From positions 2,816,001-2,880,000 of the forward strand of contig OY969696.1 in NCBI GenBank assembly GCA_963702005.1: a DNA stretch of 64,000 nt, written 5' to 3'. The notes below the pieces were generated by a model. It saw nothing but the letters and a program-made list of their open reading frames with translations, was not told the DNA's origin and searched no databases. This document shows, one piece after another, positions 1-32,110 of this stretch. Within the stretch, counting starts at the first letter, position 1, and the number at the start of each line of letters is the position of its first letter. The stretch is from Candidatus Aminicenantes bacterium (GTDB taxonomy: Bacteria > Acidobacteriota > Aminicenantia > Aminicenantales > JAFGBC01). The position numbers and the translations under genes were made by a program.

Positions 1-497
1 GCATAGCGAGGCTTCCGGCGGCGCTTCCGGGCCGCCCGGGCCAACCGGACGTTCAGAGGTTCGACCAGGACGCCGCGCGCCTTGAGCCGCTTTAAAACCC
101 GGCCCACCGTCGATGTCGAGACCTGGATCCCCTCTCGCCGTAACAGAACCACCAGCTTGTCCTTGCCCCAACGGGGATATTGATTCCTGAGTTTCAAGAT
201 GCGGTCAGCCACCGGCGCGGGGGTCAGCGGCGTTCGGACATGGATCGGCCGCCGGCTCTCCGCCTCCAGGGTCGTTAAGTCATAGGGGTCGATGCGCCGC
301 CGCCAGCGGTAGAACGTCTGGGGCGAGATCCCGAAGTAACGGCAGGTCCGGCGGGCGTTCCGGCATTGCCGGTAATACTCGAACCAGCGCAGCCGCTTGG
401 CGGCCTCCGCAGAGATCGTCCCCTGACGGACCAGGGACCGAATGTACTCAGAGCCAGGAATAATGGATCCATAGGTCGTGGCCGGCTTCATATACAT
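1..497 (-). CDS. IS481-family transposase, N-terminal part (runs off the window start)
   Basis: Manual translation from ATG at 497: MYMKPATTYGS...KRLRWFEYYRQCRNARRTCRYFGISPQTFYRWRRR...SRRP...ILKLRNQYPRWGKDKL...STSTVGRVLKR. This is the HTH pattern typical of IS481/rve transposases. It is absent from the ORF track because it has no stop in the window. Confidence 0.85.
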   Translation of the reverse strand, partial: MYMKPATTYGSIIPGSEYIRSLVRQGTISAEAAKRLRWFEYYRQCRNARRTCRYFGISPQTFYRWRRRIDPYDLTTLEAESRRPIHVRTPLTPAPVADRILKLRNQYPRWGKDKLVVLLRREGIQVSTSTVGRVLKRLKARGVLVEPLNVRLARAARKRRRKPRY

Positions 498-548
498 GGC
501 GACTCCTATCATAGCCCATAGTGTCACCTATGTATCTGAACGAGTACA
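1..548 (-). mobile_element. IS481-family insertion sequence, left end
   Basis: The minus strand from 548 reads TGTACTCGTTCAGATACATAGGTGACACT. A 5'-TGT end with an internal GACAC motif is typical of IS481 inverted repeats, and it lies 51 bp upstream of the transposase ATG. Confidence 0.8.
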
Positions 549-4815: not shown

Positions 4816-6069
<1,254 letters not shown>

Positions 6070-6071
6070 CC

Positions 6072-8516
6072 ATGCCGGACGCCAACGAACACGCCGAAGT
6101 CATCCGCAACATACCCTTGATTCCGCTCCGGGACCTCGTCGTCTTTCCCTCAACCCTGGTCCCGTTCATTATCGGCCGGCCTTCCTCGGTCCAGGCCCTG
6201 GAGAAAGCCATCGAGAAGGACGGGATGATCTTCCTCTCGGCCCAAATGGACCCCAACATCAACAACCCCTCGCCCAAGGATATTTATTCACTGGGGGTCA
6301 CCGCTAAAATCATCCGGACGGCCAAGTCCGACGACCAGAACATGAAGGTCATCGTCGAGGGAAAGCGGCGGGCCAGGGTCATCGAATACCTGGCGACCAT
6401 CCCCTTCTACCAGGTCCTGGCCAAGATCGTCAAGGACGTCGAGGACCACGGCCCCGAGTCCAAGGAGCTCCAGAAGCGCGTCCTGGCCCTGTTCGAGGAG
6501 TATCTCAAGGTCCACCAGAGCGCCAACGTGGACTCGATCGTGGCCGCCCTGAAGGACAACAGCCCGGAGAGGGTCTCCGACATCATCGCCTCCCATCTCT
6601 ATCTCTCCCTGGACGAGAAACAGAACATCCTGGAAACGGTCAACAGCCTGGAGCGTTTGCGTCGTCTCAACTTCGTCCTGGAGAATGAACTCCTCAAACT
6701 CCGCTCCCGCTTCAAGCCCGAGATGCCCAAGGGAGCCCGCCGCAAGACGGCCATCTACGGCGACCAGGGCCAAAAGGTCTATCCGGCCGGCCTCAATTAT
6801 CGGAAGGAAGACCAGCCCAACGAGGTTGAGGAGCTCAAGCAGAAAATCGCCAAGGCCGCCCTGCCGCCCGACGCCCAGGAGAAGGCCCATAAAGAGATCG
6901 AGCGGCTCGAAACGATGCCACCCATGTCGGCCGAGGCCACGGTCTGCCGCAACTATCTGGATTGGCTCATCTCCCTGCCCTGGAACAAGAAATCCAGGGA
7001 GAAACGGGATCTCAAGGAAGCCGAGCGAATCCTCAACGAGGATCATTTCGGACTGGAGAAGGTCAAGGAACGGATTCTCGAATACCTGGCCATCCGGCAG
7101 CTCGTCAAGCAGCCCAAGGGCGTCATCCTGGGGTTCCTGGGCGCGCCCGGAGTCGGTAAGAGCTCGTTGGGGAAATCGATCGCCCGGGCGACCGGCCGCC
7201 GCTTCGTCCGCCTCTCCCTGGGCGGCGTCCGGGACGAGGCCGAGATCCGGGGCCATCGCCGGACCTACATCGGCGCCTACCCGGGCCGGATCATCCAAAT
7301 GATCAAGCGGGCCGGGACGAAGAACCCCGTCTTTCTCCTGGACGAGGTCGATAAAATGAGCATGGACTTCCGGGGCGACCCGGCCTCGGCCCTGATGGAG
7401 GTTCTCGACCCCGAGCAGAACAACGCCTTTCTCGACCATTATATCGACACCGATTTCGACCTGTCCCAGATCATGTTCATCGTCACCGCCAACCAGCTCG
7501 AGCCCATCCCTAGGCCCCTGGTCGACCGGATGGAGATCATCCGCCTTCCCGGCTACACCGAGGACGAAAAACTTCAAATTGCCAAGCGCTTCCTGGTCCC
7601 CAAGCAGATGAAGTCCCATGGACTCGCCAAGACCGCCCTCCGGCTGACCGACCCGGCCCTCCACAAAATCATCCGGGATTACACCAAGGAAGCCGGCGTC
7701 CGGAACTTGGAACGGGAGATCACGTCGGTCTGCCGCAAGGTCGTGAAGCGCGTCGTCACCAAGGGCAAGGACCACAAGGAAAAAGTCACGCCGCGCAACC
7801 TCGAGGCCTACCTGGGCATTCCCAAGTTCCGCCGCTCCGAGATCGACAAGAAAGACGAGGTGGGGGTCGCGATCGGGATGGCCTGGACAGAAACGGGAGG
7901 CGAGCTCCTGACCTTCGAGGCCACCAAGATCTACGGCAAGGGGAATTTCACCTTGACCGGCCAGCTGGGCGAGATCATGCAGGAGTCGGCCCAGGCCGCC
8001 TTCAGCTTCGTCCGGGGCAAGATCTTCGAGCTCAACTTCGCCCGGGACCTCCACAAAAACTTCGACATCCATATCCACGTCCCCGAGGGCGCCACTCCCA
8101 AGGAAGGCCCCTCGGCCGGGATCACGATCGCCACCTCGATCATTTCTCTCCTGACCGAGATTCCGGTCATCAAGAAGATCGCCATGACCGGCGAAATAAC
8201 CCTGAAGGGCAAGGTCCTTCCCGTGGGCGGCATCAAGGAAAAGCTCCTGGCGGCCCATCGGGAGGGGTTCCGGGAGGCCATCATCCCCCTCGATAACCGG
8301 GCCGACCTCAAGGATATGCCCAAGGTCCTCAAGCAGGAGATGACCATCCACCTCGTCGAGAACATGGACGAGGTCCTCAAGCTGGCCCTGACTAAAGACC
8401 TGGCCTCGGCTCATCTGGCCAAGGGGCCCGGGCCGGAAGAGGCCGGCAAGGAGGCTTCCTCGAACGCCGGAGAAGGGGAGGGGGCGGATACGCCCGAACC
8501 TACTTTAACTCATTGA
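6072..8516 (+). CDS. lon: Lon protease
   Basis: LON N-domain, GAPGVGKS, DEVDK and PKEGPSAG (catalytic Ser). Confidence 0.97.
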   Translation: MPDANEHAEVIRNIPLIPLRDLVVFPSTLVPFIIGRPSSVQALEKAIEKDGMIFLSAQMDPNINNPSPKDIYSLGVTAKIIRTAKSDDQNMKVIVEGKRRARVIEYLATIPFYQVLAKIVKDVEDHGPESKELQKRVLALFEEYLKVHQSANVDSIVAALKDNSPERVSDIIASHLYLSLDEKQNILETVNSLERLRRLNFVLENELLKLRSRFKPEMPKGARRKTAIYGDQGQKVYPAGLNYRKEDQPNEVEELKQKIAKAALPPDAQEKAHKEIERLETMPPMSAEATVCRNYLDWLISLPWNKKSREKRDLKEAERILNEDHFGLEKVKERILEYLAIRQLVKQPKGVILGFLGAPGVGKSSLGKSIARATGRRFVRLSLGGVRDEAEIRGHRRTYIGAYPGRIIQMIKRAGTKNPVFLLDEVDKMSMDFRGDPASALMEVLDPEQNNAFLDHYIDTDFDLSQIMFIVTANQLEPIPRPLVDRMEIIRLPGYTEDEKLQIAKRFLVPKQMKSHGLAKTALRLTDPALHKIIRDYTKEAGVRNLEREITSVCRKVVKRVVTKGKDHKEKVTPRNLEAYLGIPKFRRSEIDKKDEVGVAIGMAWTETGGELLTFEATKIYGKGNFTLTGQLGEIMQESAQAAFSFVRGKIFELNFARDLHKNFDIHIHVPEGATPKEGPSAGITIATSIISLLTEIPVIKKIAMTGEITLKGKVLPVGGIKEKLLAAHREGFREAIIPLDNRADLKDMPKVLKQEMTIHLVENMDEVLKLALTKDLASAHLAKGPGPEEAGKEASSNAGEGEGADTPEPTLTH

Positions 8517-16761: not shown

Positions 16762-18228
16762 ATGATGATCCCCGCCCTCCGTCCCAAGCTCGAAGTCCTG
16801 AGGCCTGAGCTCATCAAGTCCATCATCGACGAGGCCCTGGCCCTGCTCGACAAGCAAGGCATCTTCGTCGAAAACGAAAATGCCTTGGCCCTTTTCCGCG
16901 ACGCCGGCCAGCGCGTTGACGGCGCCGCCCAGAGGGTTCGCCTGTCGGAAAAACTCGTCCGGGACGCGTTGGCCAGCACGCCGTCCGAAATCCGGCTTTA
17001 CGACCGGAGCGGAGATAAAGAATTCCTGGTCGGCCGGGACGAAGTCCATTTCGATCCGGGTTCGACCGCCATCACCATCCTCGACCCCGCGACCGGCCTT
17101 CACCGGAAGCCGGTCACTCCCGACCTCGTCCGCCTGGCCCGGCTGACCGACCTTCTGCCCCATTACCACTTCCAGAGCACGGCCCTTATCGCCGGCGACG
17201 TCCCGGACCTCGTTGCCGACAGCTACCGGCTCTTCTTGGCCCTCCAATACTCGGCCAAACCCGTCGTCACCGGGACGTTTCGGGTCGAGGGCTTCAAACC
17301 CATGCTGGAGATGCTGATGGCCGTCCGGGACAGCGCTCCGGCCTTGGCCGCCAAGCCCCTGGCCATCTTCGACGCCTGCCCCTCCCCTCCCCTCAAATGG
17401 AGCCAGCTGACATCCCAGAGCCTTATCGACGCGGCTCGGGCCGGGCTGCCTTCGGAGCTCATCTCGATGGGCATGACCGGAGCAACCTCGCCCGCGACCA
17501 TCACCGGAACGCTTGTCCAGCACACCGCCGAGAACCTCTGCGGCCTCGTCATCTGCCAGCTGGCCCGGAAGGGGGCCCCGGTCATCTTCGGCGGGTCACC
17601 CTCGAGCTTCGACATGAGGAAGGGAACGACGCCGATGGGGGCCATCGAAACCATGATGATCGACATGGCCTACGCCCAAATCGGAAAAACGCTGGGACTT
17701 CCGACCCATGCCTATATGGGATTGACCGACGCCAAGGTCATCGACGCCCAAGCCGGTCTGGAAGCCGCTCTCGGCGCCGTTCTAGCCGCCCTGGCCGGCA
17801 TCAATGTCGTCTCCGGACCGGGCATGATGAACTTCGAAAGCACCCAGAGCCTGGAAAAACTCGCCGTCGACAACGAGGTCTGCGGGATGGCCTACCGCCT
17901 CGTCGCCGGCATCGCCCAGAGGGACGATCCGATGGCCCTTCCCTTCTTTGAGGCCCTAAGCGCGTCCACCCAGTTCTTGTCTCTCCCCCATACCAGGCAG
18001 TGGTACCGGAAGGAGCACACCCTGCCCGGTCTCATCGACCGGGACACTTACGAAGATTGGGTAGCGTCGGGCCGGAAGACGATGGCCGACCGGGCGGCCG
18101 AGGACGTCCCGAAACGGCTTAAGGAAACGCCCCTAAACCTGGCCGATAAGAACGTCCGAAAGGAGCTCGAACGGATCATGCTCGGCGAGGCCCGAGTGGC
18201 CGGACTGAGCCGGCTGCCCGAGGTCTGA
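16762..18228 (+). CDS. MttB-superfamily corrinoid methyltransferase, non-pyrrolysine
   Basis: SPPLKW, GATSPATITG and GLTDAKVIDAQAG (Leu at the inferred Pyl position); no in-frame UAG. Confidence 0.88.
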   Translation: MMIPALRPKLEVLRPELIKSIIDEALALLDKQGIFVENENALALFRDAGQRVDGAAQRVRLSEKLVRDALASTPSEIRLYDRSGDKEFLVGRDEVHFDPGSTAITILDPATGLHRKPVTPDLVRLARLTDLLPHYHFQSTALIAGDVPDLVADSYRLFLALQYSAKPVVTGTFRVEGFKPMLEMLMAVRDSAPALAAKPLAIFDACPSPPLKWSQLTSQSLIDAARAGLPSELISMGMTGATSPATITGTLVQHTAENLCGLVICQLARKGAPVIFGGSPSSFDMRKGTTPMGAIETMMIDMAYAQIGKTLGLPTHAYMGLTDAKVIDAQAGLEAALGAVLAALAGINVVSGPGMMNFESTQSLEKLAVDNEVCGMAYRLVAGIAQRDDPMALPFFEALSASTQFLSLPHTRQWYRKEHTLPGLIDRDTYEDWVASGRKTMADRAAEDVPKRLKETPLNLADKNVRKELERIMLGEARVAGLSRLPEV

Positions 18229-25208: not shown

Positions 25209-25475
25209 GGAAGGGCGAGGAACCGGGCCATGAAGAGGGTCGTCTGAGAGCCGGAGCTTATAGAGATGCTTATGGGAGGAACAGGCGAAGCTGATGGGGT
25301 GGAGAAGGCCGTCGAAGGGTCGAGCGGGCATGGTTCCTCTCTTGAGGAGAGCGAGACCCTGAGTCGGAGCGAAATTGGCTCGCTGGGACAATTTCGCGTC
25401 CTTCGAACCCCATCGGCTGCGCCTGCCTGGGGAAATCGCAGCGTTCCCTCGAATGGCCCGGTCCGAGCCCTTACC
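25209..25475 (+). ncRNA. Putative large structured RNA, family unknown
   Basis: Nested long-range helices with G-U and tandem G-A pairs, in a gene-free gap between tldD and the MBL nuclease (see findings). Confidence 0.55.
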
Positions 25476-25619
25476 CAGGCGCCGAGAAGGATAGCTCGGA
25501 AAGGCTAAACCCTCAAAGGTCGCTGCGACCATTTCCCGATCCATATCAATCGCAAGTCGCCGCAAACCTTTACCTAAACTTAAATAATATTTCCTATATT
25601 TCACCACTTAAATCAACGC

Positions 25620-30517: not shown

Positions 30518-30704
30518 GGGTCCCTCCTTAGCGGAGATTGTACACGGGCCGATTATAAGCCAAGCGGAAGGGGATGTTCAACAAGAGAGGGGCCATGCCC
30601 GCTCGACCCATCGACGGCCTTCTCCATCCCATCGGCATCGCCTTTCGCTAGAAAACCAGCTCGGTCTCTCATGATGTTTCATTCCGTCTATGGATGCCTT
30701 TAAA

Positions 30705-30777
30705 TGGTCTGACCCAAACTCGGCTTGACAAGTGCTGTCAAGCGAAGTTCAATAATCTCATCTAAATCAAGGAGGGG
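30705..30777 (+). repeat. 73-bp direct repeat, copy 1 (end + promoter + RBS)
   Basis: TGGTCTGACCCAAACTCGGCTTGACAAGTGCTGTCAAGCG...AAGGAGGGG; 4 mismatches to copy 2. Confidence 0.95.
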
Positions 30778-30781
30778 TATC

Positions 30782-31441
30782 GTGATTATCGAACCACCGA
30801 ATTTGGCTTCAAGCCGCAGGGAATTCCTGCAGGGACTGTTTCCTGCAGGGGCCTCATTGTGTTACGACTGTGGCCTACTCTCGGCTTCGAGCAGGCTTCA
30901 GAACAATTCCCAGAACAAGCCTGCCAAACACAAATTTCTTGAGGACTCGGGCCTGACAATGAGAGAAGCCTTCAGGTTCGCATTCCTGTGGACTTACATC
31001 CCTATGATGCAGGCCCTAGCTGCTCAAATCGGACGAGAAAAGCTCGTCGCGATGGTAAAAGAGGCCACCGGTATTTACTGGGCTCAACAGGCAAGAGGCT
31101 TCGCCCAGCGGCTTCAAAAAAAGGATCGTGACGCTTTCTTCAGCATGGACACACTTGAAACAACCATCGACAACGCGGAACGCAGAAAACACTTCTGGTC
31201 ACTCGCCATCACCACTCAGAGTATCGAGGACACGCCAAAATCATACGAAATGAAGGTGACCGAATGTCTCTGGGCTCAGACGTTCCGGGAAGCGAACGCA
31301 GGGGATATCGGCTTTGCCAGCATCTGCTATGGGGATGAAGCGATGGCCGCCGCCTTTGACCAGCGACTCAAATTGATACGAATAAAAGCATTAATGAAAG
31401 GCGACGATTGCTGCCACTTCCGCTGGGTCTGGGAAGGATAG
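30782..31441 (+). CDS. L-2-amino-thiazoline-4-carboxylate hydrolase-like (V4R-like) protein with Tat-like leader
   Basis: VTECLWA, ICYGD and LMKGDDCCHFRW; SRREFL motif; GTG start after the repeat RBS. Confidence 0.75.
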   Translation: MIIEPPNLASSRREFLQGLFPAGASLCYDCGLLSASSRLQNNSQNKPAKHKFLEDSGLTMREAFRFAFLWTYIPMMQALAAQIGREKLVAMVKEATGIYWAQQARGFAQRLQKKDRDAFFSMDTLETTIDNAERRKHFWSLAITTQSIEDTPKSYEMKVTECLWAQTFREANAGDIGFASICYGDEAMAAAFDQRLKLIRIKALMKGDDCCHFRWVWEG

Positions 31442-31453
31442 ACTATCTTGATG

Positions 31454-31526
31454 TGGTCTGACCAAAACTCGGCTTGATAAGTGCTGTCAAGCGAAGCTCA
31501 ATAATCTCATCAAAATCAAGGAGGGG
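31454..31526 (+). repeat. 73-bp direct repeat, copy 2
   Basis: TGGTCTGACCAAAACTCGGCTTGATAAGTGCTGTCAAGCG...AAGGAGGGG. Confidence 0.95.
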
Positions 31527-31529
31527 AAA

Positions 31530-32012
31530 ATGAAGCGCATTGCTATTGCAGTCAGCGTTGTAGTCTTGGCCCTCGCCGTCGCCGTCCAGGCGCAAACCCT
31601 GGCACAGACAAAGAGCGGGGGCGTGGAACAAGAGCTGATTAAGCTGGAGAACGAGTGGGCTGACGCCTGGGTTAAGCGCGACGTCGCATTCTTTGACCGG
31701 ATTATAGCAGATGACTATACGTGGACGTCCCCCGAAGGCATCGTCTGGACCAAGGCCCAGGACCTTGCACTCGTAAAGTCTGGGAAGGACGTGATTACGT
31801 CCTGGGTTCTCGCTGAGATAAAGGTTCGCGTTTATGGAGACGCGGCGGTGGTCACTGGCCGCAGCACGGTCAAAGAAACGTATAAAGGCGAGGATGTCAG
31901 TGGTCAGTATCGATGGACGCATACCTGGGTCAAGCGTGCTGGACGTTGGCAGTGCGTGGCCGGGCATAGTTCGGAGACAGCCCAGAAACAGAGCATCGGC
32001 GAACGAGCATAA
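31530..32012 (+). CDS. Secreted NTF2-like/DUF4440 protein
   Basis: Signal peptide, LENEWADA, VRVYGDAAVVTG and WVKRAGRWQCVAGHSS. Confidence 0.85.
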   Translation: MKRIAIAVSVVVLALAVAVQAQTLAQTKSGGVEQELIKLENEWADAWVKRDVAFFDRIIADDYTWTSPEGIVWTKAQDLALVKSGKDVITSWVLAEIKVRVYGDAAVVTGRSTVKETYKGEDVSGQYRWTHTWVKRAGRWQCVAGHSSETAQKQSIGERA

Positions 32013-32110
32013 TTTGACACTCGCTGTCTGGTCAAGTATCGGTCATACCATTTTAAAGGACTGCCGAAAAGGATTAGAATGGTCCTTTGGAATCCGTGGA
32101 GGTCAAGGCC

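Follow-up and report, generated by a model that had tools for sequence, protein, structure and literature searches.

A non-autonomous transposable element with stacked cargo genes in a Candidatus Aminicenantes bacterium and its relatives in other genomes

Introduction

Does a block of DNA in which one short unit precedes two different genes represent a mobile element, or a duplicated promoter? The question is raised by a locus in a 64,000-nucleotide stretch of the genome of a Candidatus Aminicenantes bacterium (hereafter the window), where each copy of a 73-bp unit stands before a gene of its own and an inverted partial copy follows the second gene. The sequence-only reading of this locus had proposed a non-autonomous derivative of an IS3-family insertion sequence, in which cargo genes precisely replace the transposase and stack in tandem.

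Mobile insertion cassettes (MICs) have been described in few families, and the way in which they acquire passenger genes is not well understood. They are defined by two terminal inverted repeats that flank one or more coding sequences (PMC6199540, excerpt). The analysis described here confirms that positions 30705-32050 are a real non-autonomous transposable element, with the order L–ATC-like gene–L–DUF4440 gene–R (L and R being left and right ends). It is very probably of the MIC type, and carries genes for small exported or membrane proteins to unrelated sites. The element family may explain the very many near-identical small exported proteins in these uncultured bacteria.

Structure of the element

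The features of the element are collected in Table 1. Sequence comparison bears out the two copies of the 73-bp unit (30705-30777 and 31454-31526), which differ at four positions. The inverted copy, R (32014-32050), is identical to copy 1 at 25 of 37 bases and to copy 2 at 24 of 37; the next best site in the window reaches 21/37. R begins one base after the TAA stop of the DUF4440 gene, which ends at 32012, and the start codons lie 4 nt (GTG, 30782) and 3 nt (ATG, 31530) 3' of AAGGAGGGG. Each copy of the unit precedes a different gene, assigned by Pfam to ATC_hydrolase (E 2e-19) and DUF4440 (E 7e-25), respectively. The block is poorer in GC than the window (52.7% vs 61.7%), and GC3 is 0.60 and 0.65 for the two cargos vs 0.76-0.87 in six other window genes.

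The layout of the block had been noted from the sequence; two details of it are amended. The motif CTTGACA is correct for copy 1, and copy 2 has CTTGATA instead. The flanks reported as CCTTTAAA...TTTAAAGG are present; the preferable interpretation is a target duplication of 7 bp that has a single mismatch (CTTTAAA / TTTTAAA), 7 being the best-matching of the lengths from 2 to 12 that were tried. A 20-base degenerate pattern from the three ends has exactly three matches in the window and none in 100 shuffles; as it was built from the same three ends, this result measures uniqueness and is not a discovery. The window holds one element only, no further copies being detected in it by sequence-only models of the left and right ends.

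Table 1. Coordinates of the element and its parts in the window.
Feature	Position	Strand	Basis or remark
Left copy of the 7-bp target duplication, CTTTAAA, fits NNTNANN	30698..30704	+	6/7 match to right copy
Left terminal inverted repeat L1, 37 bp, starts TG	30705..30741	+	conservation across 19 ends
Promoter-like box in L1: TTGACA, 17 nt, TTCAAT	30725..30753	+	putative, sigma-70 type
Predicted ribosome-binding site (RBS) of L1, AAGGAGGGG	30769..30777	+	sequence; conserved in left-end alignment
Cargo 1, 219-aa ATC_hydrolase (PF14196) family protein, twin-arginine motif SRREFL	30782..31441	+	
Relic target 7-mer CTTGATG (NNTNANN) before internal end	31447..31453	+	ungapped vs CTTAAGG in L008
Internal left end L2, 73 bp: inverted repeat, promoter-like box with TTGATA, RBS	31454..31526	+	
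Cargo 2, 160-aa DUF4440 (NTF2-like) protein, 22-aa MKR...QAQ signal-like leader	31530..32012	+	
Inner part of right end, common to elements with different cargos	31984..32013	+	
Right terminal inverted repeat R, 37 bp, ends CA on + strand	32014..32050	-	
Right copy of the 7-bp target duplication, TTTTAAA	32051..32057	+	6/7 vs left copy

The right end extends inwards beyond the terminal repeat. Inner R holds the cargo stop codon in relatives, and the DUF4440 cargo of the window reads 7 codons beyond the position of that stop. Positions 1280-1346 of the window element, which comprise inner R and R, are matched at 89.6% by a relative with a different arrangement (locus L008).

Relatives in other genomes

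The ends occur elsewhere. When GTDB genomes were scanned once with an exact pattern, 11 stretches were obtained, from 10 loci of 8 genomes; of these, nine loci from seven genomes have the same ends as the window element. Their labels are Aminicenantes (L002, L005, L008), uncultured Eubacteriales (L001, L003, L004, L006), Nitrospiraceae (L007) and Bathyarchaeia (L009). The remaining locus, L010 (Gammaproteobacteria), is probably a chance match and was dropped: it lies within a heparinase-like ORF without a partner end, its flank is not NNTNANN, and its end-model score is weak (16 bits), about one chance match being expected from the scan. The pattern matches 13 of the 19 known ends and one of the seven partner ends that did not pull their locus; with so low a sensitivity, the element family is undercounted.

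The labels may mislead, since L003 2773-4724 and L005 632-2167 share 94-95% DNA identity over 1.5 kb, neighbouring AbiEi gene included, despite their different labels. Wrong titles or bins, or a recent transfer, are possible reasons for the likeness of the Eubacteriales-labelled to the Aminicenantes-labelled locus. The true range of the family may be mostly Aminicenantes-like, to judge from these sequences. The flanks of the window element recur in none of the loci found.

The arrangement L-ATC-L-DUF4440-R is found in the window and in L002. Single-gene forms are L-ATC-R (L008) and L-DUF4440-R (L009), and the L006 cargo is a distant DUF4440-like lipoprotein. SnoaL-DUF4440 fusions stand behind a damaged L in L004 and L005; there are also L-SnoaL without R, and L-membrane protein-R followed head-to-tail by a decayed L-DUF1579 unit (L003). 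In L001 and L007, R is the sole end present. The cargo kinds between these ends are thus ATC-like, DUF4440, SnoaL, the SnoaL-DUF4440 fusion, DUF1579 and a membrane protein. Two-ended elements span 590-1346 bp, the window element being the one of 1346 bp. Copies are 69-93% identical, no two identical copies were seen, and ends are decayed or truncated in L003, L004 and L005. The relatives bear out the earlier claims of a non-autonomous element with TG...CA ends, of unrelated cargos behind a promoter-like/RBS unit (the promoter being putative), and of tandem stacking.

Three details of these loci may be recorded. L003 has a head-to-tail right-end/left-end junction of two decayed units at 6261-6265, and a separate hairpin repeat at about 6860-6930 in place of the second unit's terminus. 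Toxin-antitoxin genes lie near several elements (L001, L003, L005, L007).

Evidence for transposition

The L002 stack, on a 3.18-Mb Aminicenantes chromosome, matches window positions 30705-32050 from the first base to the last at 92.7%, with unlike flanks; it lies between unrelated genes, at a different site from that in the window. Across 19 ends, conservation begins at the T of TG and falls after base 37, and TG...CA termini are found in 19/19. Outside the ends, only T at -5 (17/19) and A at -3 (18/19) are kept. Exact 7-bp target duplications, each of a different 7-mer, flank three of the six two-ended elements (L002, L009, L006), for which P is about 2e-8 even with T3 and A5 fixed. The duplication is imperfect in the window (6/7) and absent in L008 (2/7) and in the L003 element (1/7). 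The target pattern NNTNANN, noticed post hoc in the same data, fits 12 of 14 independent flanks, with two flanks sharing one 7-mer, vs a local background of 4-11%. Host sequence past the 7-mer is unlike the ends in 16 of 17 flanks (1-4/10 bases), the exception being the right flank of L009 (6/10).

The sequence-only reading had itself named an immobile alternative: a duplicated promoter with FadR/GntR-type operators and nothing more. The first 11 bases of the unit presumably resemble FadR-subfamily operators, a dyad covers the -35 box in L, and the window has one element; all three would suit such operators. The alternative is nevertheless barely credible, as it fails on the homology edges with L002 and on the duplications: the motif recurs in inverted orientation downstream of the genes, homology between genomes stops precisely at it, and 7-bp repeats specific to each site lie next to it. 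A host regulator could bind the end as a second role.

The 7-mer varies from site to site, is present on both sides and shows a symmetric preference, which is the pattern left by a transposase that makes a staggered cut, as stated for IS21 (PMC10122671, excerpt). The same observations bear on a second alternative, in which the element would belong to a site-specific recombinase cassette system (integron-like or integrative-element-like), with the 7-mer as overlap and L and R as recombinase sites. Seven bp is a usual overlap length for tyrosine recombinases, cargos are arranged head-to-tail as in cassettes, two elements have unlike flanks, and recombinase genes neighbour the L009 element. We consider this system quite unlikely: the 7-mer changes from each duplicated site to the next while its two copies agree, the adjoining host sequence is unlike the ends in all flanks except the one named above, and a phage-integrase domain is present in none of the 72 window ORFs, one such domain adjoining the L009 element.

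Transposition thus remains the preferred reading, and its timing is indicated by the two stacks. Window and L002 differ at 1 of 73 bases in L1 and at 2 of 37 in R; with ends so nearly identical at different sites, each with its own duplication, movement postdates most of the divergence. No true empty allele of the window insertion site was seen.

Further junctions deserve mention. At L009 2764-2781, R and the 7-bp duplication are followed by six bases identical to an element end. A geometry in which the spacer equals the repeat is described for circle-forming insertion sequences (PMC3299598, excerpt), and the L009 junction, a single case, gives a weak hint of a circle or end-targeting pathway. 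The L009 cassette interrupts a short ORF in its final codons and adjoins tyrosine and serine recombinase genes. On its right, the L001 element is flanked by a 147-bp repeat (L001 119-265) with 92.5% identity to L003 7539-7685 of the same genome; the element-free L003 repeat is, from its sequence, a possible empty target.

Search for a cognate transposase

Pfam scans detect no transposase domain in the cargos or in antisense ORFs, and no cognate transposase among 72 ORFs of the window, 79 of L001-L009 and 2 of L010. No autonomous insertion sequence with these ends is seen in the window, the 10 loci, plasmids or phages, or in the genome scan with its insensitive pattern. BLAST of the ends or the element against plasmids and phages gives short matches only (E 0.1 or worse); two of these were followed up and match neither end model. 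The only transposase-like hit of the scans is on the minus strand at window 3-548, where the first part of a transposase gene (HTH_32, HTH_Tnp_1) has a TGT end near 548 and runs off the edge of the window. This fragment, which we take to be IS481-like, was rejected as cognate (3-527), since its end agrees with L in 13/37 bases and with R in 10/37.

These results could mean that the elements are fossils, which once transposed, have lost their transposase, and now spread by recombination and gene transfer. On origin, this view is compatible with the explanation preferred here; it differs on present mobility. Besides the missing transposase, it can draw on decayed ends, on copies that are 69-93% identical with none the same, and on modules with unlike histories. 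We nevertheless hold it to be unlikely, given the near-identical ends of the window and L002 elements at different sites, and because the strict pattern, which missed six of seven partner ends, could easily let an autonomous copy escape detection.

To which group the transposase would belong can be approached through the ends. IS3 termini are 5'-TG...CA-3' (PMC4433286), and the direct repeats of IS3, IS150 and IS911 are 2-4 bp and those of IS2 5 bp (PMC3299598, excerpt). An IS3-family derivative, with cargos precisely replacing orfA/orfB, agrees with the TG...CA termini of all 19 ends, with repeats of about 37 bp, with the fixed distance to the start codon and with a TAG whose position within inner R is constant in most relatives; a promoter-like box in the left end is also found in IS2 (PMC3299598, excerpt). 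The 7-bp duplication argues against IS3, as do the clear TNA target preference and the remnants, which are of other cargos and not of a transposase; neither orfA/orfB nor remains of them are present. The assignment to IS3 is therefore very unlikely, and the earlier claim of it does not survive.

Across the IS21 family, duplications span 4-8 bp, a range wider than the 5 bp of one assay, and 7 bp fits this wider range only; no internal direct repeat of 9-20 bp is found in L or R of the window. IS21 ends carry at least two direct repeats each, and a 5-bp duplication was obtained in an assay (PMC10122671, excerpt). The IS4 subgroup ISPepr1 has direct repeats of 7-8 bp and ends YT-AA-YTT (PMC2266710 Table 1). 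Its repeat length agrees with that of the present elements and its ends do not (TG here), and no listed IS4 subgroup fits. TG ends and a 7-bp NNTNANN target thus match no group checked, and point to a transposase awaiting assignment. ISDol1, of the ISNCY group, has direct repeats of 6-7 bp, and is by this analogy a lead for the transposase group. PMC8147514, in excerpt, names the ISDol1/ISNCY group only and gives no ends. Definitions were also taken from excerpts of PMC9330008, PMC3129680 and PMC10969869. In the open-access literature searched, we found no description of these ends or of an Aminicenantes transposase with inverted repeats.

The left end as an expression unit

Cargo genes start 76-79 nt from the terminus in 7/7 full L ends examined, the distance for the L003 unit at 5616 being counted from the first ATG. 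TTGACA is found in seven of nine L ends and TTGATA in two, both internal copies. The hexamer 17 nt after this -35-like box is TTCAAT, TCTAAT, TTTAAT, CTCAAT or TCCAAT, so that xxxAAT is kept in each of the nine. The promoter-like box persists in two ends without the terminal 20 bp (L003 6265, L004). A consensus promoter scan called neither 73-bp unit, and position 2 of the -10 box is not the A normally found there; the promoter is therefore best regarded as putative. On this basis, the left end would supply a sigma-70-type promoter and an RBS.

The box of L1 sits inside a dyad with 14-bp arms. L can be folded as an RNA hairpin (79% paired), with no covariation beyond that of shuffles. The hairpin reading was rejected, as the dyad is explained by the -35 box lying beside the repeat's inner TGTCAA. 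Rfam gives no match at the element locus.

Cargo proteins

The SRREFL motif of the ATC-family cargo is read as twin-arginine from the Tat consensus, and its residues R12, R13 and F15 are invariant in 55 aligned sequences. For a structure model of this protein (pLDDT 81.7), the best Foldseek matches are MopR/PoxR sensor domains and Bet3/H-NOX folds, with TM about 0.4; the modelled fold resembles a V4R/H-NOX-like ligand-binding fold. A sequence search of the PDB returned no match for the ATC cargo and two uncharacterised NTF2-like chains for DUF4440. An atlas search with a 135-aa cargo gave unnamed clusters only, with recognition below threshold. In all 16 cargo pairs, dN/dS is below 1 (0.12-0.81); one neighbouring control gene has 0.29.

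In the ATC family, 85 of the 120 matches listed are >=66% identical over >=95% of their length, and 95 of the 120 matches listed for DUF4440 end in [AT]Q[KE], whose codons lie in inner R here; these protein matches carry no DNA context, and a location in cassettes is thus not implied. Read-through C-termini, as a protein marker of R, are found in none of the 120 listed DUF4440 matches. With tblastn, the DUF4440 cargo finds 37 plasmid records, all below 60% identity (best listed 38%).

The 22-codon leaders of the DUF4440 and DUF1579 cargos are identical at 44 of 66 nt, vs 17-27 for five other genes. Not one codon shuffle out of 20000 attains this score, and BLASTP finds nothing significant between the mature parts (best E 0.43). 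These unrelated cargos thus appear, from their sequences, to share one signal peptide; the ATC, SnoaL and L006 cargos have distinct leaders of their own. Among database proteins, P0255 combines a DUF4440-like leader with DUF1579, P0249 is a DUF1579 protein with a weak DUF4440 piece (E 0.004), and P0122 and P0123 look like doubled DUF4440. The first nine residues of P0075, an ATC-family protein, resemble the SnoaL cargo start, and it is possibly a hybrid of two cargo leaders.

Origin of the stack and of cargo swaps

L2 is preceded by the target-type 7-mer CTTGATG both in the window and in L002. Past the ATC stop, the single-gene element L008 aligns ungapped to the window and then runs to its own R, the empty-site-like match being short (8/12 nt). 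The target-like 7-mer and the empty-site-like L008 favour nested insertion followed by co-transposition, a course to which we give a slight preference. On this view, an L-ATC-R unit would have received an L-DUF4440-R unit 5 nt downstream of its ATC stop codon, after which both genes would have travelled together between the outer L1 and the R of the newcomer. L008 could instead be the deletion product of a stack and not the form before insertion.

Each such movement would require a DDE-type transposase from elsewhere in the cell, which would bind the ends and insert the element with a 7-bp staggered cut; the left-end promoter and RBS would express each cargo wherever the element lands.

Cargos have also been exchanged. 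In the membrane-protein unit at L003 5616, the 3' tail of a DUF4440 gene persists (11-12/14 to close DUF4440 copies); the tail retained in L008 is DUF1579-like (11/14 vs 5-6/14 for DUF4440 genes). Such 3' remnants of earlier cargos indicate gene swapping and not the precise replacement of a transposase that had been proposed; two cargos precede remnants of other cargo genes, and no transposase-bearing relative was found. Between the window and L002, the ATC genes have a dS of 0.045 and the DUF4440 genes one of 0.194 (p 0.002), with 8 differing bases in L2 vs 1 in L1, which implies that modules were exchanged or converted after assembly. New cargos might enter when stacks are trimmed, or when they recombine at the parts that they have in common, namely the leader (RBS, signal peptide) and inner R, a route to which we would assign an even chance; trimming and recombination would leave 3' remnants and make fusions.

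The apparent intermediates comprise an empty-site-like single unit, a stack at two sites, 3' remnants, in-frame fusions and a shared leader. Their presence in natural sequence makes a model of nesting, co-transposition and trimming directly testable.

Comparison with known systems

The features found are those of MICs: terminal repeats, no internal transposase, different passenger genes, and target duplication (exact in 3/6). Four of the six elements fall within the MIC size of about 0.7-3 kb, and two are slightly smaller (590 and 646 bp). The mobilising insertion sequence aside, this is apparently an undescribed MIC family.

MIC231 (IS231/IS4-family, Bacillus cereus group) similarly has two repeats, no transposase, different passengers and a size of about 0.7-3 kb, and a conserved region beside its left repeat (PMC6199540, excerpt); here, the region holds the promoter-like box and RBS. 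Unlike MIC231, which has CAT ends and 10-12-bp duplications (PMC2266710 Table 1), the present elements have TG...CA ends and 7-bp duplications. In the Tn3-type MICs of Xanthomonas, which use TnXax1 ends, passengers likewise lie between transposon ends with target duplications; complex forms have more than two repeats and tandem clusters, and use of alternative neighbouring ends has been proposed for them (PMC4337579, excerpt). These MICs have GAGGG tips and 5-bp duplications, whereas the units here are small, every gene comes with a left end of its own, and unrelated cargos have a leader peptide in common. The TIME-COMPs of Pseudomonas, termed a natural gene capture and expression system, are composite units built by non-autonomous ends that may carry promoters (PMC4133298, excerpt). 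They differ in having two whole 262-bp MITEs, Tn3-derived and with 5-bp duplications, around a core, whereas single L and R ends fit tightly round the ORF here. The principle is thus already known from multi-end MICs and TIME-COMPs. What distinguishes this family is the 7-bp target signature, the built-in putative expression leader, and the visible stacking and swapping intermediates.

Integron cassettes are small unrelated genes set in arrays and separated by little spacer DNA, and the present elements resemble them in arraying such genes. They differ in having a promoter-like box of their own and inverted termini with target duplication, in being dispersed, and in that no integrase is found in the window. 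Tentatively, the family may be a transposon-built counterpart of the integron, in which portable promoter/RBS ends, often with a secretion leader and a stop codon, would shuffle small ligand-binding domains. Nesting and trimming would then drive the expansions of exported DUF4440, ATC-like, SnoaL and DUF1579 proteins in Aminicenantes-type bacteria, and the mover would be a transposase group yet to be classified (TGG ends, 7-bp NNTNANN target). We regard these three proposals jointly as possible rather than probable.

Other features of the window

A 62-bp intergenic repeat occurs at 30582-30643 and, inverted and 90% identical, at 25283-25344; one copy lies 54 bp before the target site of the cassette. 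The low-GC region 25231-25560 includes a 37-nt match to L006 7476-7512. Neither the repeat nor the region has a Pfam or Rfam match. At 17722-17821, Rfam PYLIS_3 is found within a trimethylamine methyltransferase (MttB) region, which suggests pyrrolysine use in this bacterium.
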